Shown here: in pieces, positions 8,295 through 36,785 of the stretch
Numbering within the stretch: the stretch's first letter is position 1
How the letters are laid out: the number at the start of each line of letters is the position of its first letter
Assembly: GCA_003971905.1 (NCBI GenBank)
Contig: RSEE01000008.1
Span: forward strand, 682,001 to 746,000
Origin: Moniliella sp. 'wahieum'
Taxonomy: Eukaryota
Length of the DNA: 64,000 bases
Direction of reading: 5' to 3'
Translations under genes and position numbers: made by a program
The notes under the pieces: generated by a model
What the model was told of the DNA's origin: nothing
What the model saw: only the letters and a program-made list of their open reading frames with translations
The model's database searches: none

Positions 8295-8642
8295 GGGTGG
8301 ACAGCTACGCGCACACGATGTTGGATGGTGGGGGCACACCTCGAGCAAGGCCAAGACGGTCTGTAAGCGGCCGCATTACAGCCGAAGCCACGCTGAGCCT
8401 CAGCGCTGCGCTCAGTGAGTGCTCAGTACGCGCAGTTCAGCCTCGCTCACGTTTTCATCACCTCCAGCTGAGCAAGCTGAGGCCCTGCCATGCACTTGCC
8501 TGCTCGCATGCCGCATATCAATGCCCTTCAAATTGGGAATCTGCGCATGACGTAATCGGACCCTCTCTTATTCCTCCGACTCCCGTCCCCCTTGACCGTC
8601 TTCGCGTCGGCCCATCCTTGGTCCGCACAGACCAACACGAAA

Positions 8643-9251: not shown

Positions 9252-9895
9252 GTACACCCCAACCTGCAATCTCGTGGCACCTCATCCATCACTCCCGATG
9301 CACTTCATCAATCATCCTGCACCAGCCCCTCTGCCGTTTCCCTTTCTCCAGCCCAAGCTACCTTACCTGTTTGCTTCGGAGCTTCAGTCCCGCGTCGGTA
9401 CTCTATATACACCGCATCTTGCTCTTCATCTTCGTGCGTGATGAACTATAGCTCCGCGCATCCCGCATCACGCATCCTTGTAGGCCCGTACAGACAAGGG
9501 CCCGTATGGTAGGCGTTTCTTTGACGAAGTGGAACAAGGTGAACCGGACCTGGCGCCTCAGACCTCAGAACCCGGCGCGTAGGTTATACTGTTGTACTTG
9601 GAGAGGAGTGCGGCTAAAACTTAAACGTGTGCGTCTCGGCTTCCGCGCCGCCTGTGTTCGGATATTGGCGGGGGCGGAGAAATGTATGACAGCGGACAAG
9701 GCAACGGGTCGGAGTGCCCATCTACCGATCAATCTACCTGCCCTGGGCCGGGTTGCGCCCAGTTGCGCCTGCCCATCTGTAAAGTAGCCTGTCGGAAACC
9801 GGTCGTGACACGTCGGTGCGTGTGAGTACCGAATGCTAAACGACGAAAACAGCAGAGACAAGAACGCATCGGAGTTCCTTGGGCCTGAAGCTGCT

Positions 9896-10025
9896 TGAAG
9901 CTTGAAGCTTGAAGCTTGAAGGGCTTGAAGGTCCTGAATACCTGAAGCTTTGAATCTTTAAGATCTCTCAGATCCCACGCTTCAAGCTTCAAACTGCAAC
10001 GTTCAAGGTACGTTCAAGCTTCAAG
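9896..10025. repeat. Heptamer array cluster (TGA-AGCT)n / (AGCT-TCA)n / ACGT-TCA
   Basis: TGAAGCT x3 at 9896-9916; GCTTCAAGCTTCAA at 9979-9992; ACGT-TCA-AGCT-TCA at 10010-10023. Confidence 0.85.
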
Positions 10026-10605
10026 TTCTTGAAGCTGACAGAAGGGGCCTTGCCCAAAACGGAGTGGGTCAACAAAGCACGTCAGAGAGTCCGCCCCACC
10101 CAGAAACGCATCGCCGGTGCATCCCCCACCTGCTTGCATTGATATCCCCGCACCTGCCACACCCGCCCTTCAGACCCTCTTGAAAACAGCATCGACGGAA
10201 GTACCCCTCAAAAACCCCACATGGCCACTGGGGCAATATGAGCGCTATATTGTGTACTAGTCCGCTGACCCTCAGCCACACCCGGCCGGCAGCAGGGTAG
10301 AAGCCGCGGCGAACCCTAGACCAACCCCTTGGGAACAAGTGAACTGCCGCCAGCGCCTCAGGCGCGGCTGGGCGCGGCCTGGCACCGCGGCTCTCTCGGC
10401 CATTTTGCCTCTTGCAGTACGAAATAGTGACCAATAAATAGGCGGCAGTCCCAGTTGTTTTAGCTCTCGATATGGACTCTCTTTGGAGATAAAAGCCCTC
10501 TCTCGGTGGGCACCTTGGGAGCGAGGGTGAGTATTACCAGCCCCGCCAACTAACCCATCTAATTTTCCGCAACCATCACTCCCGCGGTCTCAATCTCGGA
10601 CGCTG

Positions 10606-12750: not shown

Positions 12751-13095
12751 TACTCAGTACTCAGTACGTACTCTTCATTCTCGCCTGCAAGCTTCTGAGT
12801 ATCGGAGTGGATCTGAGGTCTGTGCCGATAAACTAGTACTGCACAACTATGAGCTCCTACTGTAGCCCATATCACATGTCACATGTCAAATCCGATCAGT
12901 ATGTCCTAGTGGCGTGACGCGTGACGTCTGATGATGATGCATGATGCACATGATGGAACCCGTCCATGTGCAGGACCATCGATCATCGACCCGGCCTCAG
13001 GCCTCAGGACTGAGTGTACTCAGGGTACAGCCTGTACTCCGGCTGAGGCCCTGAGGGCCTGAGGCTCAGCCGGAGCAGAGATCTCAGACTGAGAG
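12751..13095. repeat. Dense cluster of TGA/TCA + palindromic-tetramer heptamer repeats (six tetramer types)
   Basis: GTAC-TCA (12751-12767), TCA-CATG (12872-12888), TGA-CGCG (12912-12926), TGA-TGCA (12935-12948), TCGA-TCA-TCGA (12979-12989) and GGCC-TCA (12993-13008). Confidence 0.85.
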
Positions 13096-13261
13096 GTACC
13101 AGCTGTTGTTGGAGTGTGGTGGCATGTGGCACCACTTGGTGTGATGGCTGGATCGGCCATGTCGTTGGCGAGCGGAACTGGCTATAGAGCTCCGCAACTC
13201 GCGCGCTCCGGATTGGTTACCGTCGCGCCCTCGTTCCCCTCCTTCCTTCTCTCCCTGTTGG

Positions 13262-13462
13262 ATTGAAGGTTGGACTAGCGTCAGGAGCTTACAAGAAGCT
13301 ATCTCTGACTGTTCCCACCCTGCACAGGTGAGCTTCCTGTTCTCTCTCTTCCTGTTCTCTTCCTGCTTCTGGCGCTTGTCCTTGTCCATCGGTTGCATTG
13401 AAGGTTGGACTAGCGTCAGGAGCTTACAAGAAGCTATCTCTGACTGTTCCCACCCTGCACAG
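13262..13462 (+). repeat. Perfect 66-nt direct repeat (13262-13327 and 13397-13462), period 135 nt
   Basis: ATTGAAGGTTGGACTAGCGTCAGGAGCTTACAAGAAGCTATCTCTGACTGTTCCCACCCTGCACAG is read twice. Confidence 0.92.
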
Positions 13463-16400
13463 TGCAATCGTCCTTAGCTTGGTAGCGTAGCTACTTCTCA
13501 GTTAACGGACAACCGCGGTTCTGGGCTCTCATTGGTGTGACCGATTCATCGCGCTCACCCATTGATCGCCTAGTCTAGTGCTTCGCCCTAGCCCCCAATC
13601 TTTCAGCTGTTGCTCCGGCGTGGCAACCATGTGTTGTGATATATCGGTGATGTGATGGGTGCGGTATATGTGACACTATACGCCATGCGTCTTGCACTTG
13701 TGACAAAAGCGAATGTGGTTAGTGGGGCCCGGGGTGCACAGATGACATACGGCACCCGCCGACGAGAGACGAGGCGGAGCACAAGGGGCAACGTGCATAA
13801 CATGTAACATGGTAACATGGGGTAAGAGCACTGTTACCATCAGTAAGGCCCTATACTATTGGTCTATACTAACACATTCTATAGCCGGAGAGATCCGTCA
13901 GAGAAATAAATGAGAAGACATAGCCGGGTTGGAGCCCAGAGGTTGGAGATTGGACCAAGCTGAACGCGTTGAACAATGTCGGACAGTGTTGAACAATGTT
14001 GAATGAACTGAGGATCTGAGCCATATATCGATCAACCGCCAAAAACATTGCCCAAAAACGCTCTGATCAGCAGCGCTCTCTGAGGATCGATGACCGACCT
14101 GAAGCCAATGCAACCGGTGTGACTGGTGACTGGCGAACAGAGAGTGTCGTCAGCGCGCCAGCAGCAGCGGCCCCAGCACTCCCAGTGGTGTCGGATCGCT
14201 TACGACTATTAAAGTACGCGGTTTTATATATTAAGAGAGGGTTAGTACTTAGTACGTGTTAATACCCATCACCTTTCCAAGGCTGTTGCAGCCATAATGC
14301 ATTGCATGTAACATGTACCAGGCGATTGCGGCGCTCGTATCGGAGCTCGCATCCTCCGCTGAAAATCGAAGCGTTCATCGCGTTCAGCAAACCTACAGTG
14401 AGTGATGAGACCTGGAGTCCAGATGGTCCTCGAGGGTGATGCAATCGCACTAGTAGTGGTGGTGGTCTAAGCCAACCAGCAACGCCTACAGAGGAACATC
14501 AAGCAGCGAGTCGCCACCAGGGGCTAAGCTGCGGAACAAGGAAAAACAGGAGAGAAAAACAACGGAACTCCTAGGCCTGAAGAGGAACTGAAGGGACATT
14601 GGCCAAAGCACGAGCCACCTGATGGCTCAACAGTGAGTTCATGAAGATCAACAACACATCTCCATCATCGCGTCCAACGCGTTAAAAAGGTGTGTTCAAA
14701 CGTGGTTGGGTACGCGTTTAGAATACCCGACCCACGTTCAAGATTTCAAACGTTCCCTCCGATTTCTGTCCGAGCTCTCAGAACCCTGATTTCAGAGGCA
14801 AGCTTGAACGTTTTAAAAGTTTACCGTTTACCGATTAACGTTTAACTTTTCCGTTTAACCCGTGTGGCGCGCGCCATATATGCATCTGCCGAGCAATATC
14901 CCGCCGTGGCGGGTGGCGCATGGGGAAGAGTGCCGGGGGAGATCGGGGAACGAGACAAAGAGTGGAAACACCTATTTGGTTCTGGGCACATCAACGCATC
15001 ACCGTCACAGGCGTCACTCACGTCACCGGCACGCCGAACATCAGCGTCAAAAGTGTTTGACAAAATGTTGGCGTATCTGTAGCGCTGTGCTTGATACTCA
15101 GTACACTCCATCTGTTGAGATCTGATGGATCTGATGGTGCTGACGCGCCTGACGCGCGCTGCGTCCCAGCTGACCCAACAGCCGACGTCAGCGTCAGAGG
15201 CTCTTGTATTAACCTGGTCCTGCTGGCTTGCCCAGTTGCTCTCGCTCGTGCACCCTGGATGGGATGGGATCGGGGCGAGGGAATTCAAAAGGCTTTGCAA
15301 TGGCCCCAAGCCGAGTAGGCCGGTGCTATATCCAGTTGCATTGTTATGCATGTTACGTTCAATGTTCATGGTAATAATGACGGTGACATTGTGACATAGG
15401 GCAGGACGTGTCACTTTCACTAGATCACTGTACAGCACTGGCCACAACAGTGAAGCTAGTGAAGTAAGAATGGCGAACCTGAGGGGGCCTGGGTGCCCGA
15501 TCTTGGGCAGTCAATACCTGTTCAAGTCAGTGCTGGACTCCTTGAACCCCCTCCTGGTACTACATGAGCATCAAGAAGTGACTGGCCCCAGTACAATAAC
15601 TTGTTCCTTGCCTGGTGGCGGTCCCAACAGCACGCGGGTTGGCCGGTCAAGCTTCAAGCTTCAAGCTCTTCAAAAGCCGCAAGGCCCAAGGCACACCACC
15701 ATACGAAAAGGAGAGGGTAAAACATGCAATAACACTCAGTCTGTGAATCTGAGCTTTTCCAACAAAAGCAGTAATTCTCAGTTGCTGAGATTCAGCATTA
15801 CCTATTACTCAGTTTCTCTCATATTGCATATACGCTCTCGGTACACCCACACACCACGCAGCAACAGTCCTTCGTCAGCAGGCTGGCTGAGCGCGCGCGC
15901 GCGCTGAACGTCTGAGCCGCTGAGTGCTGGAGGCCTGAAGCTCTGAAGCAAGTTGGGGCATGAAGATGACGGGGCAAGATGACCGGGGGGTATGCAAGTG
16001 GCATTAAATATTGAACGCTGAAGCTTGCAGCTTGAAGCTCGAGACGTTGTTGAAGAACGACTGTCAAGCGCAGGCCTTTTATAGACCAGCTTCAGATTCA
16101 GTCAGACGTTCAGTTCTTCTCACACGTTACGCGTTACCGCGGCCTTACTGGGTTACATGTTTACGCGTTACGTACGACACTATAGGCATAATACGATGCC
16201 GTTTGCAATTTGGGATGGGATTGAATGGGGCGGGGAGGCAGTGTGCGGGCCCATTCGGAAGGGGCGACAACAGGGGGCAAGTGTTGTCCTCCTGAGTATG
16301 TGGGCCGGTTAGGCACGGCTGGTGTGGTGGGAGGATGGTGGTCTGTGCGATGGGGCGCCGTGCGTGGGGGCCCCCATGACTCGGATCGCCGGTGGAGGCA

Positions 16401-16579: not shown

Positions 16580-17155
16580 CATGTGACATGTGACATGTAG
16601 CACATGTGGCATGTGGTTGTGAGTACGTGGGTACTGAGAGTACGAGTACTGGGTACTGGGTCCAGTACTGAGCTACTCAGACTGACTTCTCAGAGATCTC
16701 GGATCTCGATCTCATTACTGAGTCTCAGTACCGTGTGAGTTGTGAGTACAGTTCGGTGTTCAGCGCGTTGAACACGTTGAACGTTGAGCACGTTGTTAAT
16801 CGATAATCGATAATCGAATAATCGTTGACCGAACCGTTGCGTACGAGTACACTGGGTACGTTAGGCAGACTGGCTAGAGTGAGGGTGTGACATGTGACAT
16901 GTGACAACAGCGCCCAGTGCACTCGATGGTCGTAGGGCTTGCGTGAGTGTGTGAGTGTGAGCGGCGTATGTGCCGGTTGTTGGCATGGCCGCCGTTTCGG
17001 AGCTCCTTTACTCGATCACTAGTCACTAGGTCACTAGGAATACTGAGGTCTGAGGCTCAGACCACCGGGCACCGGTCAGCCGGTCAGGCCTGAGCCTCAG
17101 GCCCAGGCCACAGTGCCTCAGTGCCTCAGTGAACGTTCAGGCGTGCAGGCCTGAG
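16580..17155. repeat. Second dense heptamer cluster, upstream of the C2H2 gene
   Basis: CATG-TGA (16580-16597 and 16888-16906), ACGT-TGA (16774-16787), TAA-TCGA x3 (16797-16817), TCGA-TCA-CTAG-TCA-CTAG (17012-17029), CCGG-TCA-GGCC-TGA (17080-17093) and TGA-ACGT-TCA (17130-17139). Confidence 0.85.
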
Positions 17156-17262
17156 ACCATGGTAGCTAGGAAAGCCTCGTCGAAAACAAGCCAAGCGAAA
17201 CAGCGCCGAGTGGCGGTGTCCGCCGGGAAGGTGACTAGCGCTGGTCAGTGCCCGCCCGGCAA

Positions 17263-18453
17263 ATGCCTACGCCCTCCGGCATCGCCCTTTCTTCCATCGC
17301 ATCAACGTTCAACAACACCACCCAGCTTGTGGCGCTCGAACCCAGCTGCATGTCCTCTGTCGGTGCCTTGCTCGCCTCCTCGCCGCCACCTGCTGCCATG
17401 TTCGAACGCCCCTCATTGGCTCCCCCACGGCCCGGCCTAGGTGCACTGTCCGCCCCGTCCGAATCCAGCCGCACCCCCAGTGCCAGTACCAGCACCAGTA
17501 GCAACGCCAGCACCGCCGCCACTACACCCTCGACACGCGCCAACGCCAATCCCAGTGCCAACGCCGGGGCCAGTGCTTACAACAGCCCTTCCGATTTCCC
17601 TCCTCCCCATCTCCTAGCACCCTTTCCGGTTCGTAACTCCGACCCAAATCTGCCTCCACCTCCGCTGCCGCCCCATGACACGCCTACTTCTGGGTCGCGA
17701 TGGATCCATCCCTTGCAATGCAGGGACACACAGAAGAGGTGTTCATTGCATATGCCAGCCTATCCACCTCCCCACCGACCACGCCTAAGCAACCCGGCCC
17801 AATATTCGCTCACTTCCCTCCGCCACGTTGGCACCCGTTACCCGACTCCCATCAAAATGGTTGGCGTGACCATTGCGATTCACCTGGGCGCCAATGGGAG
17901 TCCTTACCGCGCTTGCCGCCCCTTCGCCATGCCCACCATCTTGCTCTCCCACAGGAGAGGGAAGGCGGACGACCGCGGCCTACTGGCTTGCCCATCGGCT
18001 TCGACCACCCGCGCCCGGACCCGTCCCCTCCTCTTGCTCATCCTCGTTGTCAACCCTACCCTCCACCACCCAGTTCCAGTTATCCCCCACAGCGCGAGGG
18101 AAAGCGTCCACGTTTCACCTCCGACTCGGAACCAAGCCCTTGGGACACACAGGATCCCCCCCCCTCGTCACAGGAGCCAGCATTTGCACCTACCACCACC
18201 CATTGACTGATGCTTACTGTGGTGCCCACTTCAATCGTCTTTACGATCTCTCCCGTCACCGCCAGATCCATGCGCGCGAAGAAGCCGAGCGATCGCGGCC
18301 GGTTTGTTGAGGCGCGATCAAGCCTTGGTGTGGGGTAAAGAAGTCGACCCTGCTTCCTCTGGTGTGACCAAGGAATGGTGCTGTCAAGAATGTCAATCGG
18401 TGTTCTCCCGAAAAGATGCACTGCTCCGCCACAAACGGCTTCGGGCCCATTGA
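17263..18453 (+). CDS. C2H2 zinc-finger transcription factor with Pro/Ser-rich N-terminus and two C-terminal fingers; frameshifted in this assembly
   Basis: Finger 1 is ICTYHHPLTDAYCGAHFNRLYDLSRHRQIH. Finger 2, read by hand from 18361, is EWCCQECQSVFSRKDALLRHKRLRAH, with TGA at 18451-18453. ATG at 17263. Confidence 0.82.
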
Positions 18454-21532: not shown

Positions 21533-21628
21533 GGTCGATTAGCTCAGTTGGTCAGAGCGTGGTACTAATAGGTCCAGCTTGGAGTGTTGGTGATGCCAAG
21601 GTCATGAGTTCAAGCCTCATATTGACCA
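21533..21628 (+). tRNA. tRNA-Ile(AAT) with 22-nt intron (21571-21592)
   Basis: Acceptor stem GGTCGAT/ATTGACC; D arm GCTC..GAGC; anticodon stem TGGTA/TGCCA with loop CT-AAT-A^A; T arm ATGAG-TTCAAGC-CTCAT; discriminator A. Confidence 0.95.
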
Positions 21629-21635: not shown

Positions 21636-21968
21636 CATTGGGTGCGCTTGAAGCTTGATCTCAGGAAGGCGCCAGCCCTCCGAGTTTCGGTTCCCGCTCA
21701 GTCATATGGCCATGGTGCATGATGTCTTGCGCATCGCCATATGCATAACCGTCGTCTTCACAACCGTTGGCCATCGATCATCGATCATCCACCATTAGGC
21801 CTTAGGCTACAAATAACTGCTCGCGCGCCTTTACGCGTCCACCTGCGTCTCAGTCCTTTCAATGAGTGTTTCTGCCAGCATGCTCCCAGTGCCGCTTCTA
21901 ATGGCGGCTTACATGCGGGATTAGGTAAGCCTAGCCTGAGAGCAGCGGATGGTGTTGCACCGAATGTG

Positions 21969-24884
21969 ATGTCATCCCAGGCGCCGCAGCGCCGCAGCGC
22001 CTCACTGGCCTCACCCCCCCTTGCAGCTGAGCCTCATCTTCCCATTGTGTGGGCGCCAACTTCCCCTCCATCGCCATGGGTGCATCCGAGCCTATGCTGG
22101 ACCTGCAGTCGATCCAGTCGCACTCGCCTGAATGGACGCCCGAGCTACGCTTTGCCGTGTGCCTGGCCACCGCCCATGCTGCCCGTGCGTGCTACCACCG
22201 CGTAGAGGCCCATGTCGACGCACTGGAGGACGCTCAAGCCTCTGCCCTCCCCGTACCGGGCACAGCGCGGTCCGAGTACAACCCGCACCATGCCGATGAC
22301 GAGGCTACACTCGGGATCAAGACGGAACACTTTGAGGAGGAGGGGGAGGATACACGTGATGCTTCCCCTCACCAGCGCATGATCATGGAACGTGTCCGCC
22401 TTCGCCGCCGACACGAGTTTCTTCAAGACTGGGACGAGTTTAGTACCAAGTTCCTCCAAGCTACATGCCAGCACTTGGGAGTCCCGGTCCATGCCCTTCC
22501 TCCCGCTGATGACATGACGGAGGATGAAGTTTTCCGCATTATTCGCGGCGCAGCGCCCGACCCAACCCCGGCATCTCCGGCGACAACCATTGTTCCACAG
22601 GAGGAGCCTGCCCTGTAGATGAATCCAACGGCAGTCTACCGAGTCGAATGACGAGGCAACAGAGGATCCTCCATTGGAAAAGATGGAAGACCTATCGTTG
22701 GACGATGATGAAGACTCGCTCCAGGAAGCCCCTCCTGAGCCCATGGACCAGCCCAGCAAGGCATTTAGCGTACCCCTGGGCCGTCCAGGTCGTCCCCCCC
22801 TTCCATCCCCCCAAATTCCCATCGAGAACGACACCAAGACCTCTTTTGTACAGGCTGGGCAGGAGGTGGAAATCGTGCATGAACTCGTACTTATCGCCCT
22901 GGGACTGGGACAGTGCCGTGCTTCGGATGGAGCGACAACACTGTTTGAGCAAGATGAACTGTTTCAGGACGAGAACAAGGTTGAGGTGCGGGACATGTCC
23001 GCATCGCAGACTGCACCCGAGGTGCCACACCATGCCCGTGGATCTCTGTGGAGGAAGAAAGCAAGGCCGTGGCGGAGGTGGCTGCGTTGGAGCCACAGGC
23101 CGAGGAGATGCCTTCTTCGGACTCACTACCCCTGCGGACACTCAAGTCGAAGAAGCCTCGGTCCAGCAGATCGACTCGCCCCCTCTTCCCCTGCCCGTCC
23201 TTCCGATTTGACTTCGCCCGAATCTGCCCCGACGGAAGAGGGAAACTTCCTCAGTACGCCTCCACTTCCGCCCAGGACCCCATCTCCCCTGGCCCCCCAC
23301 ACCGATGTGCAAGAAACGGCGAAGCCCACCCCGCCTCCTCTGCCCCGCGCTTACCTCCTCGCCCATCCGTGCACCCGCCTGTGTCTGAGCCCGAGACAGG
23401 CGGGAGCTCAGGATGGAAGACGCCCAAGACTCTATTTTCTTCGCTCAAATGGGGAAGGGGAGGGAAGAAGGATGCTACGCCAGAACCAGAAAAGTCCGAG
23501 ACCCATCCCGCTCCATCCGGAAGAGGAGCCGCCATGTCCGAAGCCAAGGAGCCTGTCAAGCCCAATGAGCTGTTTCATTATGATGCTCGCTCTCGTGCCA
23601 TCATCTTCCAGGTGCTGCGGGCTATGGGGTTGGAGAGCGTGTATCTGTACCAGGGGGAAAAAGTGTTGGCTCAGTCCATCTACTTTTTGGTGCAAGAGTG
23701 CCAACGCGCGGAAAACCAGGGTGAGCCCGTGTCGGAGGAGACAAGAGGGGCATGGATGAATGAAGCGAGCACGAAAGTGCTTGCTCGTGAGCGTAGCAAG
23801 GGCAATTGGGGAAGTGGGCCGCAGCTGGGGTGGGATTTACCCTGGCGGGTGTGCTAACGGCGGGCTCGCAGCCCCGCTTTTGGCCCCGATGATGGTTGGT
23901 ATGGGTGCCGGTTACCTTGCTACAACAGGTGGCGTGGTTCTCATGGGTACCCTTCTGGGTTTAGGGGGCGGGGGATTGGCTGGGTACCGTGTGGAACGCC
24001 GGCTGAGGGGGTTGGACCGGCTGAAGTTTGACGTGGTTCCGACCCCGGCTGCTGATGCAGGGCTGACGATTCCCAGTATGCACGCCACGATCTGTGTGTC
24101 GGGACTGCTGACCCAACCGGGGCAACAGACGGACCCATGGAAGCAGGCACTGGCATTCGCCATCCCGATCCAAGGGACATTTACGCCGTCGAGTTCGAAA
24201 CGGACCTGATGGTAGAAGCTGGGACAGGGCTGCAGCGTTACGTGACCAGCCAGCTGATCCGCACCGGTGGAACGCACGTGGCCACGGAGGTGATCAAGAC
24301 AACCGCTTTGGCCGGCTTGACAGCCTTGACACTACCTTGACCGTTATGAGTGTGGCATCGGCCGCGTTGGACTCAACATTTGTGCGTGCCAAAACCAAAG
24401 CGCATAAGGCCGGCTTGGTTCTTGCTGAGACGCTACGGAACGAGGTGCAGGGGCACCGTCCTGTGGTCTTGATTGGTGTCTCCCTGGGCGTCACTACGGT
24501 CCTATCGGCCCTGGTAGAGCTGGCCAAGAACCCAGGTGCTTCCGCCCAGTTGATCGACTCGGTCTTTCTCATCTCGGGGCCTACGGTGCCGAGCACGCGT
24601 ACGATCAAAAAGGCACGCTCGGTCGTCGCGCGACGCTTTGTCAACGCCTACAGTAGCAAGGACATGGTCTGTGGTGTTGCCGCCTGGCTGGGGTCAGGAA
24701 CTAACATTGAGGACCTGCGTAACGGCAAGCTGCCGCGCGTCATGGGCTCAGGACCCGTCGACTTGGGCCCCGAGGGGACGTGGAAAATGTGGATGTGTCG
24801 GAAGTGGTCTCAAGCCATGAGCAACTGAACCACGAGGGCCATCTAGCGGCGGTGTTGGCGCGGTGCAATGCGTTTGTAGGGTAG
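21969..24884 (+). CDS. TMCO4/DUF726 (Mil1-like) membrane protein with C-terminal alpha/beta-hydrolase-like domain; several frameshifts; start uncertain (21969 or 22076)
   Basis: HYDARSRA, GGLAAPL, GLGGGGLAGYRVERRLRG, AHKAGLVLAETL, GHRPVVLIGVSLG, RSVVARRFVNAYS and VENVDVSEVVSSH; TAG at 24882-24884. Confidence 0.85.
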
Positions 24885-25143
24885 GCCCTTTGTTACCTAC
24901 AATGATTTTGCGTTCATCCATTGTCCTGAAGGAGGGGGGGGGGCGTCACGCGCGACCTACTCAGTGCAGCCATATGCAGATCGACGTTACAAGGGCGACA
25001 CAACGAGAAAATAAGGATAAAACAAGACTCAGAAAATAGCCAGGGATAGGGTATCCAGGTAATCGAAAGCGTCACACGCTCAGAATAAGGAAAGTGCAGC
25101 TAGCCACAGGTGTCCTTACGAACGACCAATCTTGGCTGCCGTA

Positions 25144-26789
25144 TTAGTACGGGCGGTACTGATATACTGGCTCGCCGTAGCCTTGCTGACCATACCCATG
25201 ACTGCCATATGGCTGTCCGCCTGGAGGCAAGCCAGGCGCGCCAGGCATTTGTTGTTGGTAAGAGCCAAATTGAGGCGTGGGGGGGGCGTAATTGGCTCGG
25301 GGAGGCGGATATTCGGGGGTGAATGTTGGGGCCAATTTGAGGTCGGAGCCTGCGTCTTGCAGTGGGGCATACCTAGCGTTCCCGCCGAACGACCAGGGTG
25401 GCAAACCCAGCTGCGGTGCCTCCCACAGCTGCGCTGGTTGGCAATGCAACCTGTATCGTCCTTCTTCCCCCCCAATAGTACCGGCAACAACACACAATCG
25501 CCGTCCATACCACGATCACACTCCCCACCACAATCGCCACAATGATCCCAATCTTGATCTTGGTTGATTTCGACATGGGCTTCTTGGCCTGCTTACCCAT
25601 CGCCTCGTTCCGGACCGAGTCAGGAAGCTGATCCCCACTTCCATCCCAACTATTGGAGTTTTTGACCTGTCGGTTGGTTGAGTCAGCATAGCCCGGCATG
25701 CCGGAGGCGCCGCCGTAGTCCATATTCGCTATGCGGGTCAGGGGAGCGGTGCTGGTACTAAAGCCTGGGTGGATGGACGAGCCGTCGCCCGAGTAATTCT
25801 TGCCCGAGTAGACCCAGCTCGTCACAGTATTGTTCGACTGGCGACGGGTGGGCGAAGAGGCCGCATGGTTGCACTGCACAGTATAATTCAGCAACTCATG
25901 GGCGTAGTATCCTTGCTTGGTGTACTCAGGGGTGGTCCAATCGATCACACCGCCAGCCCAGGCTTGTACTCCCTCTGGCTCAGTGACGTTGCCTCCTGCC
26001 CACAATGAAAATTGGACGCGGGAGGGAGATTGCGGGTACCAGCCCTTGCAATCAGAGGCCTTGAGCGTGCGGACCACGTTACCGTCAATCAGCCATTGCA
26101 GCTGTTCTGGTTGCCAGTTCAATCCATACACGTGAACGTCGTCCACACTCCAATGGCCAGTCTGATTGAGCGTCTTGGGCTGGCGATTGGATTGCAGGCC
26201 AAATGTGTTGGTCTGCGTGTTAGTCGGATCTGCAGTGGTAAATTCCCAATCAATCTCGTCGCCCACGTCGGACATGGTGATGAAGCTGGCTACCACGCCA
26301 GCGCGGGCCTCGTGACGAAGAGCAGCCTCAATTGTGCCGTAAAGAATGTAGTTGGTACTGGAAAGCTTGCCTTGGGATCCCTGGGTCATTTCCAGCAGCA
26401 CTCCATCTTGCCCCTTGCCAAGAAAGCCATTGTCGAGCGTAAAGGCAGAGTTGGCGGTGCCATTGTAGGAGAGGATGGGCATAAGTAGTCAGTGTTGTTA
26501 TAGTCGGTCGGCTTGAAGCTGAGCTCATGTCCTTGCACACGGGCATGGGTGCACAACTGTCGGGTGCATGAGACGCCAGAGGATTGCATCCGTTCGCACA
26601 GTACATGGCGCCCTTGCCGCAGGTGCCGCCCATGCAGCATGGCATGCTGGAGGGACACTGGTTGCTGGCACTGCAACTTGTCTGGGCTGCAGCGGGTGCG
26701 GGTGCGGCGACGACGGCGAGCCACACAAGCGCAGCGAGCACGGCCGTGGAGGCGGCTGGTCGGCGCAGAGGGGAGCGGAGGACACGCAT
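25144..26789 (-). CDS. GH16 Crh/Utr2-like chitin transglycosylase with signal peptide, Cys-rich chitin-binding module and C-terminal TM helix plus tail
   Basis: Signal peptide ending APAAAQ; CSASNQCPSSMPCC..GTCGKGA.YC..GCNPL; catalytic MSDVGDEIDWEF; YPQSPSRVQFSLWAGG; TM IGIIVAIVVGSVIVVWTAIVCCC. Confidence 0.88.
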
Positions 26790-28685
26790 CGGATGCCCCG
26801 GCGAAGGAAGGATTGGAGAAGGTGGTGTGGAGGAGAGAGGCTGGGCTGCCGTGTGGTGCTGCGTTGCTGCTCCACTCTGCTCCGCCTGGCCTGCCGCTGC
26901 CGCTGCCCTGCCTCCGCACCGCGCCTGGCCGCTGCTGGGCGCGCACGGCATGCGAGGCTTGGCGCCAGTCTGCTGCATCCCCCCTCACTGCCGCCCCGTG
27001 CCCCCGCCCGGCACAGCAGGGGGCGCACTCCCAGGCCATGCAAGCTTCCCTCTCCCCGCAGACACGCTGACGTAACTTGCTGGTTTGTGTCTCTGCCCAT
27101 CGTTTTTGTAGCTACGACCGGCTCCGTGACTACCGTTGGCCTGCCAGATACTACCGTGGCATATCGGCATCGAAAAGAAGAAATTGATCTCCTCTGGATC
27201 TGATTCTTTGAAGATTGATGCCTCTGCCCCTCCCGCCGGATTCTACCGAGGCAGCCCTGGCCCGGTTGTGTCTGCTGTGTGGGCGACCGAACACAGAGAC
27301 TCTCGTTGTCGCAATCGCGCTGATCACAAAAAGTCTCGTCTCTCTGGCGGAGGGCAGGATGAAGCACTGCTCAGCCTTATCCGGGCGAACAACTTCACAC
27401 CAGGGTGGTGCAAGCAAAAACATGCTCACAAGTTCGTCATGGTTAGCTGTGATCTCTTATTTTTGGCATACCAAAGATATCGACACATAGATCAGCTCGG
27501 GGGGAGGACTCAGTAGTCGGTGGAACGTCTGTTGTCGTCAGTATCCAAAACGTTTCCATCGATCGGCGATAGTATACCTTCCTCTGCCTCGGCCCCAAGC
27601 GCTGCCCTCTGTCTCCCTATCGTCTTGATCACTGCTGTCTGCCGCCTACCTTTTTTATTGTTATACCTCTCAAAAGGAAAGAATCGAGACTAACGAACGA
27701 GACATCCACACACCCTACTATATTCCCTCCCCCATTTTGAGCATATCTGCGCATTACACGCTTGTCCGCAAGAACAACGGTCGTGATTAATACACAAGTC
27801 GCTGGCTGTTCTCTCTCATCATGTGGAAAAGCAATTTAATCCCTCAAATTGGCAGGCATATAATACACATCTCACCTGCATCATACCTCATTGTGCCAAG
27901 GCCTCTGTAAAAAGGGAAATGGCGAGATAATCGTATTGCCGATAATCGATAACCGGCCGGTAGCCACCGATCATTGATAACAAGCATCGTCGATACTCAG
28001 TAACTCAGTACTCAATAGCTATATCTAGCCTCTTATAGCATAGCATAGCAAAGCCAGTATATTTGACTGTGACATGTGTCGCAGCGAAATAAGAGAAAGA
28101 ATGCCAAGACGATGTCATGCAAATGAGGCAGAGGGGCGTGTGTACATAACCGGTGCCAATCACTTTGGGCTGGGCAAGTATAGTTCCTGGCAGGCGCAGG
28201 ACCAGTCTCGAACACTGATTCGGGGAATTAATCGCACACCGCCCCCGTGGCTGCGCGGCCTTAATGCATTGCGAGCGCCGCTGGGCGCGAGCATCTCAGC
28301 ACACTGGCCAGATGCAGATGGCAGGGGTTCACACTGTCACGCATGTCACATGTCACAGCATTCAGCCAAGACGTGTGGTTCATGTTCTTCCCGCAAGTGC
28401 GGGGTTGAGAATAGTGCGACAAGAATAGGCTCTTGGCGTGTCTGGGACCAGCATATGTCAACCACCCTTGATAGGATATCCCGCTTCGGTGATCCGCGGA
28501 GAAGTGTTAACGCCAAGCCTGTGTCTCCCGGAATTCGGCACTCGTCGAGGATGTGGACCATCGACGTCGCCCTCGACCGTGAGCATACGACAGGATATAA
28601 AGGCCCTTGCTTCTCTCTGCAATTCTCACCTGCAATCCCCATCTCGCATGCAGCAACTTGTGCTCGTTAGCTCATTTTGCCCAGT

Positions 28686-31600
28686 ATGTCCGACGAAAGC
28701 AAGATCCAACTCGCGGTTGAACCCACTCTGTCGCCCACCAACTTGGACGAGCCGGTCACGCTTGAGTATGCCCAACAATTTTCCTACACACGCCCAGCGA
28801 TCACCATCCTGCGTGCGCTCAATGTTGACCCTGACTCGGGACTCCACGAGGACGAGGTGGTCAAACGCCAGGAAACGTATGGCCCCAACGAACTGGCGGA
28901 TGAGTCGGGTGTCTCTTACCTCCAAATCTTTCTTGCGTCAAGTACTTAACGCTATGACTCTGTGCGTTCACCGCCCACCCACCCCCAAAAGCATCCCTTT
29001 GGAAGATTCTAACTGCTTCTTTTTTCTTTGTTCTCTTCCCACAGGTCCTCCTTATTGCCTTCATTGTCTCGATGTCCATCAAGAGCTGGATTGAAGGTGG
29101 CGTAATTGGCATCGTTCTAGGACTCAACATTGCGATTGGCTTCTTCCAAGAAAGTGCCGCGGAGAAGACGATGGCATCTCTACGAGCCCTCGCCTCTCCC
29201 ACTGCCCATGTGATTCGTGCTGGCGAGCTAGTGACCATTCCCAGCTCCGAACTCGTTCCGGGAGATTTGGTGGAGCTGTCAACGGGAGACCAAGTTCCTG
29301 CGGACCTACGTCTGATCGAAGCCAGCAACTTGGAGACGGACGAGGCCTTGTTAACGGGAGAAGCCATGCCAGTAACCAAAATTCCGCAACAAGTGCTGTA
29401 CGACCCCGACACGGCGGCAGGTGACCGGATCAACTTGGCGTACATGTCGAGTACGGTAACCAAAGGCCGAGGGACAGGTGTTGTGGTGACGACGGGCATG
29501 AACACGGAAATCGGACTGTTGGCCGGCGCGTTGCAAGGTCCGTCCAAGCGGTCAAAACTGCGAGAGATCAAGGAGGCTACGTACGGGAAAAAGGTACAAA
29601 CTGCAGCCCGTGTAGGTGCTGGTGCAATGTGGGACAAGACGGCTGCCTTTCTTGGCTTGACGGTTGGTACCCCCCTCCAGCGCAAACTTCTGTCCTGGCA
29701 TTGCTTCTCTTTTTGATAGCGGTCGTCTTTGCTATCATCTGCTTTGCTGCCAACAACTGGACGGACAACGAAGTGATTCTCTATGCCGTCGCTACAGGGG
29801 TGGCAATGATTCCTGCCTCTCTTCCCGCTGTGTTGGCCATCACCATGGCCAAGGGTGCTCAGGCCATGACATCGCGAGGCGTGATTGTGCGCAAGGCGTC
29901 CGCCATCGAGGCGTTGGGCGCAGTCACCGACATTTGCTCTGACAAGACTGGAACGTTGACTCAAGGCAGGATGATTGTCAAGCAGGTCTGGCTCCCAGGC
30001 GAGGGAGTTATCAGTGTGACGGGATCGGAAGATGTGTTTTCCCAAACAGTGGGCACGTTTCCAAGCACTGCGACGTCCAACCGAAAGACATGTCCCCCCC
30101 ATGACCGCCAACGGCACGGAACCCATGCTCCTTGGTCCTGAGTTTCGTACGGCCAACCAGACCAAGAAACCCCTCTGACCGATTTTCTCAATGTGTGCGT
30201 CTCCTTTCTTCCGTACATTATGCTTGTTGCTCTCTGTTTTCAAAAAATACTGACACTATCCCCCCTTATACTCGCCTCTGACAGCGTATCTCTTTGCACA
30301 ATGCCAAAGTTCTCAAGGATAAAGAAGCAAACAAGTGGGTGGCACACGGCGACTTTACCGAGTGTGCGCTCCAAACATTTGCCCACCGCTTTGGCTGGGG
30401 CCGACCCAATCTGACCCAGGCGTCGCCAACCAAACAGTCGGACGCCGAAAGTTACCTCAAGGACCAAGCCGAATGGGAACTGGTTCATGAGAACGGCTTT
30501 TCTTCGGATGTGAAACGCATGTCGGTCGTGTTCCACCATACACCTTCGGGTCGTGGATGGGTAATGATGAAGGGGGCCGTGGAACGGGTGGTGGAGGGGT
30601 GCACCACATTCTCTGGTCCTAACGGTATGGTGGCGCTGGACGAGACGATCCGTGCCGATATTATGGCTAATGTCGAGGTGTTAGCGTCCCAAGGCTTGCG
30701 TGTGTTGGCGCACGCCAGCCGATCCGTCTCGGAAGAAGAGCCAATGACGGGGTCGAATTCAGAGGGGGCCGAAGCGTGGCAGCGCCTTGATCGGGCCGAG
30801 GTGGAGAGAAACATGACGTTTGTTGGATTGGCAGGCATCTACGACCCTCCTCGACCCTCGTCGGCGCCGGCGATTGCCACGTGCCACGGAGCCGGGATTG
30901 AGGTGCACATGCTTACGGGCGATCATCTTGGTACGGCACGGGCCATTGCGCAAGAAATTGGCATCCTGCCCTCCAAGGAAGTGATGGCAACCTGGGCGGA
31001 GGATCGGCGGCGCGCGATGGTCCTTACCGGTCCTCAAGTGGACAAGATGACGGAAGAGGAACTGGATCGCTTGCCCGCACTGCCACTTGTTGTCGCCCGT
31101 TGCTCCCCCCAGACCAAGGTGCGCATGATCGAGGCTCTTCACCGCCGCCGCGAGCGGTGTGTGGTCATGACGGGCGACGGCGTGAACGATGCACCCAGTC
31201 TCAAAATCGCCGACATTGGGATCGGTATGGGATCGGGGTCGGACGTGGCGATTGGAGTGGCCGACTTGGTCTTGTCTGATGATAACTTTGCCTCGATCGT
31301 TGCCGGCATTGAAGAAGGCCGTCGTACGTTTGACAACATCAAGAAGTTTGTCCTTCACTTGCTCGCTCAAAACGTGGCCCAAGCTATGACGCTTCTCATT
31401 GCGCTCGCCTTCAAGGACAAGGACAACATTTCCGTCTTCCCCCTCGCGCCCGTTGAGATTCTGTGGGTGATTATGGTCGCCTCAGGATTGCCCGCCATGG
31501 CACTTGGGTTTGAACCGGCTGCCGAGGATGTCATGCAGCGCCCCCCACACAGTATCAAGACGGGCGTGTTCACCCTGGAGGTGGTGCTGGACCTACTGGT

Positions 31601-32138
31601 GTACGGGGTGTGGGTGGGAGTGTTGTGCCTGTCGACGTTTTCGATTAGTGTGTGGGGCTTTGGTCCTGGCACGCTGGGCGAGAGCTGGAGCTGCAACAAA
31701 CCTGCGGCCCACCGCAATCGTAACGAATGCCGTCCCATCTTTCGTGCACGGGGTGCGACGTGGGCGGTGATGGTGATTTGTTCCCTGTTGTTGGCCTGGG
31801 AGATGGTGCATCCGCGCCGCTCCTTTTTCCGGATGCGGCGGGAACACACCATCTGGACCCAGTGGTGGCACGACACGTGGGGACGCAACAAGCTCCTCTT
31901 TGCCTCCGTGGTGGGCGGCGCAGTGGCCATTCCGCCTATTCTCTACATCCCCGTCATCTCGGCCGATGTCTTCCTTCACTCGGGCATCTCATGGGAATGG
32001 GCTGTCGTCGCCGTCGTTTCTCTCTTGTTCATGGTAGGGGTAGAGCTGTGGAAAGCAGCCAAGCGTGTCTTCCTCAGGAGGAAGGCTCGTCGCACCCCTG
32101 CCTCTGAACATTTTGTTCCGGGAAAGTCCATGGCTTGA
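28686..32138 (+). CDS. ENA1: P-type IID Na+/K+-exporting ATPase; introns about 28962-29044 and 30195-30284; frameshifts in the 5' half
   Basis: YGPNEL, SWIEGGVI, DEALLTGEA, ICSDKTGTLTQG (phosphorylation site), KGAVE, MLTGDH, ARCSPQTKVRMIEALHRR and MTGDGVNDAPSLK. Confidence 0.92.
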
Positions 32139-32383
32139 TCTTGGACGTGTGGATACCTCTTTTCCTATTAATACACACCACACTGCTGGTCACCTTCTCA
32201 TCCTATAATACTCTCGCCTGTCCAAATGCAATCCCCATCGGTTCCTATCTCGATTCCACTGTACTGGACGACGGAGGTGTCCTATTCGCAGTGTGTAGTA
32301 CACAGTAAATGTAATGGTTCTAGTCCGTGAGCATCCCAAGCTGGTAATATATAGTGTGTGTGGTCGTGTAGGGCGGTACCAGA

Positions 32384-33040
32384 TTAGTGTACACAGCGTT
32401 GCCAAACGAGAGGCCAAACCTCGTGCTGGTGTAGACCGCGACGCCACTGCTGGCGCAGAACAGCGATGCTGCTCTGGCGCGCGATGGGGGGGCAAAAACT
32501 AGCTTGACATCGGGTGCAGACGATGGGGACCAGCATAATCTTGGTGCAGCGACGAAAGTGACACTCTTTTTCCCGTTTGGCTCGTCCTACTGCCTTGTTC
32601 TCCGCAGGTAAATGGGCTTTGCATCCCGCCCGGCTGGCGGGTGGGGCAGCAAGGTGCGCACGAATACACGCTTCTGGATCTTGGCCGCGCACCCATGCCG
32701 CTGGCGGTTCGTGGCAGTCGGGACAGATGGGACAAATGTGCCGCTTGGCTCAGAGGGGGTGCTAGCGCACCGGTGTCCTTCCGTCGGACGAAAATGGTCT
32801 TGGCAAAAGCTAAGAAAAAAAGGAGGTGAAGGAACGTAATTCCGTCAGCATCACAGCATGCGTACAAGGGTGAAGAGGGAAGATAGGCAGCACATACGAA
32901 AGATGGCAGTCAGCGCATTGGAATGGCAGGTAGTCTTCCCGGTGGCAATCGGGGCGCTGGCAGCGCTTTCCAATGAGCAGCATGGGTCCCGTCGTGCGGG
33001 CGGTGTCTGCGTGGCGCAAGTTAGCGGTGGGATCGCGCAT
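32384..33040 (-). CDS. Tandem AN1-type zinc-finger protein (Cuz1/ZFAND-like); one intron near 32810-32898; 3' end approximate
   Basis: IGKRCQRPDCHREDYLPFQCADCHLS|FCQDHFRPTEGHRC, then ECHFRRCTKIMLVPIVCTRCQASFCP.HRAPEQHRC. Confidence 0.8.
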
Positions 33041-33768
33041 GATGGAGGTGGTGGTTGCATATGCTGTGCGGGGGAGAGGATGCGGGGTCAAGAGCAGGGC
33101 TCTTATATATACGCGGCGGTGGATGCAGTTGTGGCGGGGGACGCCGACCCGCATACGCGGCCTCGCTGAAACAGAATCGCACCGACGCCGACCGATACTT
33201 TGCGCCACTGAAATGTTCACTTTCGGCATTTCATTTTGTGCTCTCCAAATTGCATTTTCCTGGGGCGAATGTGTGCCGCCTATGCGCCCCGGTCATATTA
33301 TGATGCTACCCGGAGAGAGGGAGTGTGCGTATCTCGTCCCATCCGTCATCGCGTCATCATCAATCGTTTCCCCCTTTGCATCATCTCAACAAAAAGCAGG
33401 TGTTGGTGGGGGCGAAGTAAAGGAGAGGGAAAAAGGAGGAGCCAATTGTTGAATTAGACTCCTTACCATGCCCCTTTAGGAACGTCTCAACATGGACGAG
33501 GGCAGGGGGTTACAAGTGAAGGTGTCGAATCCAGGCTATGTTTCCCAAGTGAAACAAGATATAGGTTTACGGACAAACATCAGCGCCCCCTTTGGTTCGC
33601 GTAGGTAAACACCAGGGCTAGTCCGGATAGGCAAGTAGAGGTGAATATATGGCAGAGCAACAAAGCAAGCAAAACGAAGAGAGCGTGGCTAGAGAGGGGG
33701 TATAGCTAGCGGGAGGAATCAAGAGCAAGGCGGGCACAGTGAGAAGGAGAGAAAGGCAGGTCACTTGG

Positions 33769-35283: not shown

Positions 35284-36550
35284 AATGGCGTTGGTGGGGG
35301 GCCAAGAAGAAACGGGCGGAGGGGCGAGGGCAAGGAAGGCAGCCCGCCAGAAGAGGGGGGGGGGTGAGTGGTGAGGCTGAAGAAGGTGGTGCCAGATGTA
35401 AGAGGTGAGGGTCAGTGAGAGGGCGCTTTTAGCCAGTGCTCCCGGCCAGCCAGGCCAGTGCCCGCCACTCCTGCGCCCCCCTGCGAGCGAGCGAGCCGCG
35501 ACAGTGGCCGCGCTGCTGCCACCCTGCAGCGGGCAGCAGGCCAGTCGCGCAAGGGGAGCGCAGCCCGCGCCAGCAGGCCAGTGTGTGTGCAGTCGCCGGC
35601 GCCCAGGTGCGATGCGCCTCTGGCGCCGCCCGTGGTTGCGCGCATCATGCATGGTGCATGATGCATGCAAGGAGACAGGTGACATGCATGACATGTGGCA
35701 TGGACAGGCGGCAGATGTGGCAGATCCCCGACGGATGCATGTCAGCCCTACACTGGCGCCATGCGGGCTACGCGCTGTCGCCCAGCCACAACGCCCTCAG
35801 TCCTTGGCCAACCTCCAAGTCACGGGTCCGGCCAAGCCCCCGCCCAACCAACGGCGACCCCAGTGCTGGCTACCCCTGCGACGCCCTGCTACCCCACGCC
35901 TACTATCCCCCGTTTGGCCAGGGCGGCGCATGGCGCAGTGCACGCCACATTTGGCCACTTGCCTTGTGCCCGCAGCGATGGCTGCGTAGCAGGCCACCCC
36001 ATCCATCCATCCATCGCTGCTACCCGATCCAACGTGGAACGTGCAACGGTGGAACCAGTCCGCCTGATCTGCGTCTCCGTTGGGGACCATTGCGGAGCCC
36101 ATTCGGCCACTTGACTAGCTTGACTTGCAGATTGGCGTGGTCGTTCAGCTGAACGTTCACCTTGAACAGTCACTAGTCAGCACTGGTCAGCAATATGAAT
36201 CTGGCATGCCACATGGAGTGTTGGTGGACCCTTTGTCCATCCACGAAGCGTAAACGAGAGGCTTCCGAAAGGAGGACCAAACCATGCTGGTTGATGAGGG
36301 GTGAGGCCGAGGTGAGGCCGGTGAGGCCGGTGAGGTCCGATGTAGCAGATGGAATATGGATGCATGGCCGATGGCCAAAACAAGGCCTATCAAGAAGGGT
36401 CTCCGGTCTGCCCAGGAGTCGACTCCCAATCGCGCACTGGGTCCGACGCCCAATCGGCCACCTATAGCGGGCTTGGCAGATCCAGCGGTCCCCGCTACAG
36501 TTCCGTGATCCTGTGATCTGCCCCACGTTCCACGCGCCCGCGTGGGGTCG

Positions 36551-36785
36551 ATGCATGATGCATGGTGCATGGTGCATGATGCACTTTGCATCAGTAACTA
36601 GTAACTCAGTATACAGCTCTGCCCCTACTGTGCCTGCAACTGCATGGGCCAGTCTCTTCAACAGCTTCAAGAGCCTCCAAGTCAACAACGTGCAAGCTGC
36701 TTCAAGCTTCAAGCTTCAAGACGTTCAACCTCCTGGCAGTACATCGCACAGGAACGTCGCCCACATCAGGGCCTCAGGCCTCACC
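36551..36785. repeat. Heptamer cluster (TGCA-TGA, TAA-CTAG, TCA-AGCT, GGCC-TCA)
   Basis: TGCA-TGA-TGCA at 36552; TAA-CTAG-TAA at 36595; TCAAGCT x2 + TCAAG at 36702-36720; GGCC-TCA-GGCC-TCA at 36770-36783. Confidence 0.8.

Follow-up and report, generated by a model that had tools for sequence, protein, structure and literature searches.

Heptanucleotide tandem repeats built on a T-N-A plus palindrome rule in non-coding DNA of a Moniliella contig

The non-coding DNA of a 64-kb stretch of contig RSEE01000008.1 (Moniliella sp. 'wahieum', assembly GCA_003971905.1, positions 682,001 to 746,000) carries short arrays of period 7 whose units follow a single rule. Each unit consists of a triplet of the form T-N-A (TGA/TCA or TAA/TTA; here S) and a self-complementary tetramer (here X) that varies between arrays. 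The rule was proposed in an earlier reading of the letters and open reading frames (the sequence-only reading), and we have now examined it in this one 64-kb window (the whole stretch, with coordinates counted unstranded from its first letter), with metagenome contigs as control DNA. It is borne out more strongly than it had been stated: 57 arrays fit it, and the configuration X-S-X, with palindromic X and S = T-N-A, was observed 43 times against 0.8 ± 0.9 (maximum 4) in 200 order-3 Markov simulations. The pattern is real and apparently undescribed. We tentatively interpret the arrays, with a probability of roughly 35%, as hairpin-prone heptanucleotide tandem repeats of a class specific to this lineage, which lie in non-coding DNA, for the most part in spacers with promoters, and which have grown by local tandem duplication and slippage and were not deposited by mobile elements.

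Results

The repeat rule

We defined an array as an exact period-7 run of at least 12 nt whose unit is T-N-A plus a palindromic tetramer X. Against a Markov background, period-7 runs of this length number 204 where 58 are expected, and 66 of them have odd-palindromic units where 5.8 are expected. The centre of the unit is T-N-A in 57 of these 66 arrays (TGA 22, TCA 22, TAA 7 and TTA 6), and the twelve other centres total nine. Similarly, the exact period-7 runs of at least 14 nt, of which there are 59, stand well over the trend of neighbouring periods. Two of these are homopolymers, and among the 57 others T-N-A is present in 42; the remaining tetramer in those 42 is a perfect palindrome in 32 (chance, 1/16), has one mismatched pair in nine and has both pairs mismatched in one. 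Copies lie head to tail, in exact runs of 12-29 nt and in degenerate arrays of up to about 12 units.

As the T-N-A spacer is constant, X is always flanked by A and T, so that the unit is a 6-bp palindrome, A-X-T, plus one base. It is equally a 7-nt odd palindrome of the form nnT-N-Ann (TGTGACA, CCTCAGG, ACTCAGT, CTTCAAG and GTTGAAC are examples), tandem repetition of which creates a palindromic tetramer at the joint. Furthermore, because X is palindromic, a flip in the orientation of a unit is no more than a single G/C change at N.

Eleven of the 12 palindromic tetramers that contain G or C were found as period-7 arrays. All six types claimed for the type locus (GTAC, CATG, CGCG, TGCA, TCGA and GGCC) were located there, at 12751-13008, and AGCT, ACGT, CTAG, GATC and GCGC occur elsewhere in the window as had been reported. 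The sequence-only reading had counted CCGG as the twelfth word, and here it has to be corrected: CCGG exists only as a variant, the run at 17072-17087 being CCGG+TCAG of period 8, and position 27953 reading CCGGCCGG between TAA and TAG, without periodicity. That the four AT-only tetramers had not been seen is explained by their absence, since none of the 57 arrays has such an X against 7.2 expected from single-copy frequency in non-coding DNA (P about 4.5e-4, with the arrays taken as independent though they are clustered). Words with two G/C are in excess (45 against 27.5 expected) and GC-only words in deficit (12 against 22.2 expected).

The control comprised 410 kb of metagenome contigs of other organisms, picked only because they contain a CATG+TSA array. 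The underlying metagenome scan, for ACATGTSACATGTSACATGT, returned at least 118 contigs, and these were used as control DNA, not as relatives. With the seed type set aside, 18 of 924 period-7 runs in the control fit the rule, which is about chance level, against 57 of about 204-206 in the window; the control flanks hold many other heptamer arrays, which follow no multi-word rule. The presence of (TGTGACA)n in contigs of other organisms indicates that the CATG+TGA heptamer alone is widespread as a simple repeat. In three of these contigs (L003, L021 and L040) the (TGTGACA)n arrays stand beside telomere-like CCCTAAA/TTTAGGG heptamer arrays. Thus, the earlier view that ordinary microsatellites with arbitrary units would not share such a rule is upheld, and something sequence-specific writes or filters the units: the period is 7 (with variants of 8-9), the spacer is T-N-A only, and the control DNA does not repeat the pattern. 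The sequence-only reading had not recognized a described repeat family, and a heptamer rule of T-N-A plus palindrome was likewise absent from the full-text literature that we searched, a limited collection. The arrays are structured short tandem repeats, which are of a known kind; what appears to be new is the T-N-A plus palindrome grammar.

Specificity of period, spacing and boundary

The effect is confined to a narrow range of lengths. Odd-palindromic units centred on T-N-A are not in excess at periods 5, 9 or 11. Same-strand TGA-TGA distances of 6, 7, 8 and 9 nt occur 32, 47, 38 and 37 times against about 15 expected, and are at background at 10 nt. When the spacing is 8 or 9 nt, the spacer consists of a palindromic tetramer plus one or two bases in 22/62 and 27/62 cases (2.6 and 4.1 expected), and at 10 nt a palindromic tetramer is found in 6/26 spacers, as expected (6.2). 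The centre is equally selective: for each class of site in non-coding DNA, the ratio of arrays to single-copy sites is 57/117 for T-N-A, 1/89 for A-N-T, 5/160 for C-N-G and 3/152 for G-N-C.

Outside the arrays, single copies are not enriched, whether counted as the 7-mer, as A-X-T hexamers or as longer T-N-A-centred palindromes, and the signal therefore resides in the duplication step. Perfect even palindromes (S-X-S', loop 0) show no enrichment either. Palindromes centred on one base with arms of at least 6 number 43 against 17.7 expected, most of the excess coming from the arrays themselves. A second recurrent form was noted among the inverted words of the window, in which two CTGAG/CTCAG words face each other across one base, as in GGCCTGAG-C-CTCAGGCC; it occurs at 8391-8405, 16716-16730, 17047-17063, 17087-17103 and 55690-55702.

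The boundaries of the runs avoid the interior of T-N-A. Only two of the 57 runs start there, against about 16 expected if starts were uniform, and run ends lie at either joint between S and X or at the centre of X. By phase, 15 of the 57 starts fall at s1, 12 at x1 and 15 at x3.

Distribution in non-coding DNA

None of the 57 arrays lies in the 20.9 kb of coding DNA (Pfam-backed or contiguous frames), which holds 25 of the 149 other period-7 runs. Repeats that break the reading frame would be expected to be missing there. An artefact of sequencing, base calling or assembly would ignore reading frames, and the point variants and decayed copies in the arrays are typical of evolving DNA, so that we consider such an artefact extremely improbable. 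The arrays are gathered in clusters at 9.5-10.0, 12.7-17.3, 21.0-21.8, 27.9-28.4, 35.6-36.8, 38.9-39.9, 43.6-44.6, 51.2-51.9 and 55.3-55.7 kb, with a few singles besides. The gene models against which we placed them are rough (Pfam matches, a weak codon score and one atlas match). On these models, the spacers with arrays appear to hold at least one 5' gene end, and the three convergent spacers at 24829-25372, 32139-33617 and 46235-47396 (3.2 kb in total) hold no array against about five expected at the mean density, a contrast that is suggestive only.

Arrays of the same X are often found as nearby inverted pairs (9893/9979, 12993/13043, 15647/16019 and 35642/35655), and regions with such pairs fold better than their shuffles (z = -4.0 and -3.6). 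A miniature inverted-repeat transposable element or foldback element was considered for these pairs and rejected: those at 9893/9979, 12993/13043 and 15647/16019 have unrelated centres, with no flanking duplication or repeated full-length copy. Local terminal inverted repeats were searched for across the window, and there are none besides the arrays themselves.

Selection could also have assembled the arrays as promoter or chromatin elements, either homotypic clusters of short sites with dyad symmetry or DNA that is prone to form hairpins or cruciforms and holds promoters open, read via T-N-A at 7-bp spacing or via structure. Tandem repeats that tune expression in fungal promoters are of a known kind, and the location of the arrays (all non-coding, clustered in spacers with an apparent 5' gene end, none in the three convergent ones) would suit such a role. 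Array types also recur at distant loci (CATG+TGA at 16580, 16886 and 39856), and composite blocks are 85-92% alike between spacers. However, eleven X words without a common sequence argue against one sequence-specific reader of X, and the TGA/TCA orientation, inspected against the gene map, bears no consistent relation to the neighbouring gene. Given in addition that neither single motif copies nor the perfect palindromes S-X-S' are enriched, and that the association with promoters depends on rough gene models, we regard this explanation as unlikely. The sequence-only reading had also offered a structural or chromatin signal read by a protein, and with arrays in apparently promoter-containing intergenic regions and none in the three convergent spacers (again on rough gene models) that candidate is a possible one. 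Readings of the units as stop codons, branch sites, bZIP sites, heat-shock elements or homeodomain TGA-N9-TGA sites were dropped, as orientation, flanking bases or spacing did not fit (at the 12-nt spacing there are 24 pairs against 15 expected).

Hairpin-prone units and the duplication step

Self-complementarity is kept across 11 X words (32 of 42 perfect), which fits base pairing better than protein recognition, because a protein dimer may prefer certain bases but cannot require them to be complementary whatever their identity; the free complementarity of X is thus a property of base pairing. A G-T wobble is present in only one of the nine X words with one mismatch, so there is no sign of pairing at the RNA level. 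In the reading that we favour, X-TNA-X would fold on one strand into a 4-bp X:X stem capped by a T-N-A loop, 4 + 3 giving the period of 7. One or two added loop bases (loops of 4-5) would give the 8- and 9-nt variants, and at a 7-nt spacer (the 10-nt spacing) the effect is gone. Slipped or displaced strands that fold in this way may be stabilized and escape flap or loop removal, duplications of foldable units would be fixed far more often than those of other 7-mers, and whole units would afterwards be gained and lost as the arrays grow and decay. A stem made of an AT-only X would be too weak, and at run ends the loop behaves as a block. We infer, in short, that folding is the selector of the units. 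Hairpin-forming CNG triplet repeats are usually explained by an analogous stabilization, and the escape of hairpins from loop repair and flap cleavage is established in yeast for palindromic loops and CNG repeats. In the window, a stability threshold exists, in that X needs G/C: within the T-N-A class, there are no arrays for 19 single sites with a predicted free energy (dG) above -2.5 kcal/mol, and 57 arrays for 98 single sites below it.

Several findings nevertheless weigh against folding and undirected slippage as the whole account. Nearest-neighbour mean dG is -3.8 for T-N-A, -4.15 for A-N-T, -6.0 for C-N-G and -6.4 for G-N-C, and the array ratios given above do not follow this order. Hairpin thermodynamics as the sole cause of the T-N-A rule is therefore rejected, since arrays are nearly lacking in the C-N-G and G-N-C classes, which are more stable, and in the A-N-T class, which is about equally stable. 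The preference for T-N-A over A-N-T implies either a real loop asymmetry beyond these energy parameters or an extra sequence-specific step, and such a step is possible. Period-9 arrays, whose 6-bp stems a purely structural filter would allow, are T-N-A-centred in 0/34 cases. Of the nnT-N-Ann sites in non-coding DNA, about a third belong to arrays (82, against 117 that are single), a yield that is very high if slippage is undirected, and with only about 0.8 X-S-X precursors expected by chance in the window, the efficient birth of arrays is left without explanation. Finally, the empty convergent spacers hint at targeting to open or promoter chromatin, or at a function.

It is possible, though doubtful, that this lineage has a dedicated DNA-level process whose target in open promoter DNA is T-N-A between self-complementary bases. 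The target would probably be recognized as a small hairpin, extruded or single-stranded, whose loop is T-N-A, and exactly 7 (6-9) nt would be duplicated there, with about a third of the eligible sites converted over time into short arrays. If true, this would be a structure-plus-sequence-specific 'repeat writer' that has no described eukaryotic counterpart.

Alternatively, a symmetric, sequence-specific enzyme (a transposase or integrase, or another dimeric nuclease) acting at T-N-A-centred sites in open promoter chromatin could make staggered cuts of about 7 nt (6-9), gap filling would duplicate the 7-mer, much as a target-site duplication is retained once an element has been excised, and repeat hits or slippage would lengthen the array. 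The fixed length, with its sharp 6-9 window, and a T-N-A centre chosen over A-N-T at equal predicted stability do look enzymatic, and an odd palindrome is the form that the duplicated unit should take if cutting is symmetric about the central base of the site. Exact integer copies in that phase are found at 16886-16906, 36593-36606 and 39284-39297. The high hit rate, with a third of potential sites in arrays, and the restriction to promoter-bearing rather than convergent spacers (on the rough gene models) point the same way, and T-N-A is the target duplication of transposases of the IS5/PIF-Harbinger type. However, a dimer cannot demand complementarity at ±2 and ±3 whatever the bases, as the 32 perfect palindromes among 42 and the eleven words would require, and the run boundaries fall in at least three phases instead of one. 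The need for G/C in X is a feature of pairing energy, no terminal-inverted-repeat element or transposase was seen in the 64 kb, and a literature search for fungal transposons with a 7-bp target-site duplication turned up fish elements only. We therefore consider such an enzyme rather unlikely.

Orientation of neighbouring units

Within an array, the middle base N is constant among neighbouring units. Neighbours in the same orientation are enriched three- to fourfold at 7 nt (TGA followed by TGA, 47 against 15 expected; TCA followed by TCA, 38 against 10), and TAA-TAA and TTA-TTA behave likewise. Mixed neighbours at the same distance are at expectation (TGA then TCA, 12 against 12; TCA then TGA, 14 against 13). 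Variant units, such as ACAT+TGA or X+TGG, also occur repeated. Growth of the arrays is thus faithful copying, with enrichment of same-orientation neighbours only and with variant units repeated as such.

These counts bear directly on the first mechanism put forward in the sequence-only reading, in which the units would be excision footprints of the Tc1/mariner type, with X as a 4-bp target duplication, T-N-A as 3 nt left from the end of the element, and mismatch repair deciding the middle base. Annealing of identical 3-nt overhangs would indeed give the T-N-A form, with complementary outer bases and a resolved central mismatch, and the near equality of TGA and TCA (22 and 22) and of TAA and TTA (7 and 6) is in keeping with it. 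Spacers of X plus 0-2 bases resemble imprecise junctions. There is also a precedent in Ustilago maydis, where numerous small 10-bp intergenic repeats are described and suggested to be footprints of past transposon activity (PMC4081816). Independent events should, however, mix TGA and TCA, and mixed neighbours do not exceed expectation. Moreover, X is not one target sequence but eleven words, and the runs begin in several phases. Of the runs of 11 nt, only 4/11 have the isolated X-S-X form that starts from X, and run lengths do not peak at 11, 18 or 25 nt. No element was found in the window: Pfam and an inverted-repeat search for the DNA transposons that the proposal calls for revealed neither an inverted-repeat element nor a transposase. 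We conclude that footprints are a very improbable source of the arrays. The second mechanism proposed there, fill-in repair of 4-nt staggered breaks with a 3-nt insert, found no support, as it leaves the constant, templated T-N-A without explanation.

Catalogue of arrays

The arrays and the variants that adjoin them are listed here, with the type locus first.

12751-12767: GTAC+TCA, 17-nt exact period-7 run (type locus)
12872-12888: CATG+TCA, 17 nt, TCA-CATG-TCA-CATG-TCA (type locus)
12912-12926: CGCG+TGA, 15 nt, running on in TGA phase into TGATGATGA and the next array (type locus)
12934-12948: TGCA+TGA, 15 nt (type locus)
12977-12989: TCGA+TCA, 13 nt, adjoining the GGCC array in a common 7-nt phase (type locus)
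12993-13008: GGCC+TCA, 16 nt, left arm of an imperfect hairpin with 13043-13065 (type locus)
13043-13065: 8-nt variant CTGAGGCC, 2.9 copies, GGCC + TGA + one extra base, inverted relative to 12993-13008
9893-9921: AGCT+TGA, 29 nt, 4.1 copies, the longest exact run, with degenerate TTGAA words on to about 9960
9979-10036: AGCT+TCA arrays and degenerate TTCAA words, inverted relative to 9893-9921, with 58 nt between the arms
13798-13820: CATG+TAA, two 7-nt units, then 8-nt units (TAACATG TAACATGG TAACATGG)
14242-14255: GTAC+TTA, 14 nt
15647-15667: AGCT+TCA, 21 nt, with an inverted partner, AGCT+TGA, at 16019-16045
16580-16747: composite tract of CATG blocks (TGA, TAG and TGG spacers), then GTAC, then GATC units; palindrome TACTGAGTCTCAGTA
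16774-16817: ACGT+TGA (14 nt), then TCGA+TAA (21 nt)
16886-16906: CATG+TGA, exactly three TGTGACA units, 21 nt
17016-17131: CTAG+TCA (7-nt, then 8-nt units), CCGG+TCAG (period 8), the odd palindromes GGTCTGAGGCTCAGACC and GGCCTGAGCCTCAGGCC, and also CAGTGCCT (2.6 copies)
21646-21807: AGCT+TGA (13 nt), TCGA+TCA (18 nt) and GGCC+TTA (13 nt), just downstream of a tRNA gene
27940-28357: TCGA+TAA, GTAC+TCA, CATG+TGA and CATG+TCA, in the divergent GH16 / ENA-ATPase spacer
35642-35669: inverted TGCA units, GCATCATGCA-TGG-TGCATGATGC, with 10-nt arms
36550-36783: TGCA (TGA/TGG spacers), CTAG+TAA, AGCT+TCA (22 nt) and GGCC+TCA
38890-39042: GTAC+TCA (17 nt) and CTAG+TCA units, all in TCA orientation
39284-39516: CTAG+TGA, a degenerate array of about 12 units (words ACGT, AGCT, ACAT, CGCG and AAGT with TGA/TAA/TCA), and ACGT+TAA (25 nt)
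39856-39891: CATG+TGA (19 nt) and TGCA+TGA (12 nt)
43611-43961: GATC+TGA (13 nt), period-8 ACGTTCAC and CGTTACCG units, and ACGT+TCA (14 nt), upstream of isocitrate lyase
44489-44500: GATC+TGA, 12 nt
51234-51877: TGCA+TCA, CGCG+TCA and AGCT+TGA (two)
55279-55340: GCGC+TGA, TGCA+TGA and near-palindromic TCGC+TCA / TCGC+TGA units
57365-57385: ACGT+TCA, three units, 21 nt
63352-63367: GCGC+TTA, 16 nt

The longer tracts at 16580-16747, 39356-39442 and 55270-55360 hold the TGA phase while X changes block by block. Other short arrays lie beyond the strict rule, namely GTTGAACAAT (3.6 copies) and GTTTACC (5.7 copies), at 13968-14003 and 14819-14857; the latter heptamer reads CCGT+TTA and is one mismatch short of a palindromic word. 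The longest tandem repeat in the window is also off the rule: it is an 8-nt array of GGATGGAG / GGATAGAG, in about 11-14 copies, at 47268-47383 in a convergent spacer.

Setting and other features of the window

The window is gene-dense, eukaryotic and about 58% G+C. Its long open reading frames match, in Pfam, a Hobbit/FMP27 protein, Mog1, an MFS transporter, DUF726, a GH16 glycosidase, a fungal ENA-type P-type ATPase, a bZIP protein, isocitrate lyase, a protein kinase and ribosomal protein L2/L8. The best named matches of the isocitrate lyase are from Tilletiaria anomala (80%), Parajaminaea (79%), Malassezia (78%) and Sympodiomycopsis (77%), and they place the host in the Ustilaginomycotina, probably as an exobasidiomycete; to judge from these protein matches, the stretch is nuclear DNA from a smut-related fungus at or close to the Exobasidiomycetes. 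Logan contigs encode proteins 75-91% identical to those of the window. For the open reading frame at 17239-18210 the protein atlas search gave no usable match, and the one at 45161-46234 has weak atlas support as a basidiomycete gene.

The sole Rfam match in the window is a tRNA, and the arrays match no RNA family. This tRNA gene (21533-21628, + strand; 52.5 bits) contains an intron, its anticodon was not named by ARAGORN, and it is located in a divergent spacer, where a heptamer array begins 18 nt past it. The ENA-type P-type ATPase gene (28429-32138, + strand) consists of four overlapping open reading frames in different phases, which may reflect short introns or frame errors in the assembly. 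A G-rich tract with G17 (49312-49440) and a C17 tract (51185-51213) lie 1.8 kb apart on either side of the ribosomal protein L2/L8 gene, as an inverted pair.

A repeated segment of about 85-250 nt is found at 13244-13327 and 13379-13640 and, inverted, at 41211-41436. The two direct copies are 135 nt apart and 93% alike over 84 nt. The third copy lies 28 kb off, just downstream of isocitrate lyase, and the arms are 89-97% complementary. The copies at 13379-13640 and 41211-41436 are alignable over about 250 nt only and contain no heptamer arrays. The segment ends in a pyrimidine tract and CAG, resembling a splice acceptor. Possible identities are a shared 5' exon or intron, a gene for a small RNA and a small mobile element.

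Discussion

In addition to defining the rule that these arrays follow, we were able to compare them with several systems in which short repeats or duplications arise. One likeness is to the hairpin-forming CNG triplet repeats. Both combine a self-complementary core with one base that does not pair with itself (GC + N in the triplets, A-X-T + N in the arrays), in both either strand can fold into a hairpin with regularly spaced N-N mismatches, and growth is by whole units. However, the period of the arrays is 7 rather than 3, with six paired bases per mismatch and many cores under one rule, and the arrays are short (2-4 exact, or up to about 12 degenerate copies). Furthermore, stability does not account for the flanking pair, which is strictly T...A. 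Ordinary microsatellites share with the arrays their head-to-tail copies, variable copy number and decayed flanks, but the units of the arrays are not arbitrary. The tandem repeats of yeast promoters are mostly AT-rich, and we know of no common compositional rule among them; they are short, unstable repeats concentrated in promoter-bearing spacers, as the arrays appear to be.

Excision footprints of Tc1/mariner elements have the form TA-CAG-TA / TA-CTG-TA and, as in the arrays, a palindromic flank is combined with an insert of 3 nt, in which the outer bases are complementary and the central position is taken by one or the other member of a base pair. The flank in the arrays, however, is any of many 4-nt palindromes, the centre base is constant per array, and there is no element in the window. 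Transposases of the PIF/Harbinger and IS5 groups duplicate 3 nt within flanks of a defined consensus. Their targets share with the arrays a T-N-A at the centre of a dyad-symmetric site, but in the arrays 7 nt are duplicated and the flanks are freely complementary. The small repeats of Ustilago maydis, a fungus of the same subphylum, are similar in being numerous, very short and intergenic in a compact, transposon-poor genome, a comparison by description only (PMC4081816). As far as that description goes, they differ in length, the unit of the arrays being 7 nt, and in that the arrays are tandem and combinatorial.

Taken together, the readings set out above share out most of our belief, and the remaining probability goes to some explanation that we have not thought of. 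If the rule holds genome-wide, the fungus would offer a natural experiment on the birth of very short tandem repeats, in which one grammar separates sequences that duplicate from near-identical sequences that do not. The clearest contrast for repeat birth is that between T-N-A and A-N-T (57/117 against 1/89). Either outcome would be informative, pointing either to an unrecognized structural property of tiny DNA hairpins that drives mutation or to a new promoter-shaping enzyme activity in a fungal group to which plant pathogens and skin commensals belong. The finding is relevant, too, to the long-standing suggestion that transposons left the small intergenic repeats of Ustilago maydis as footprints. 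In practical terms, the arrays would serve as closely spaced markers for typing strains, and promoter length probably varies because of them.

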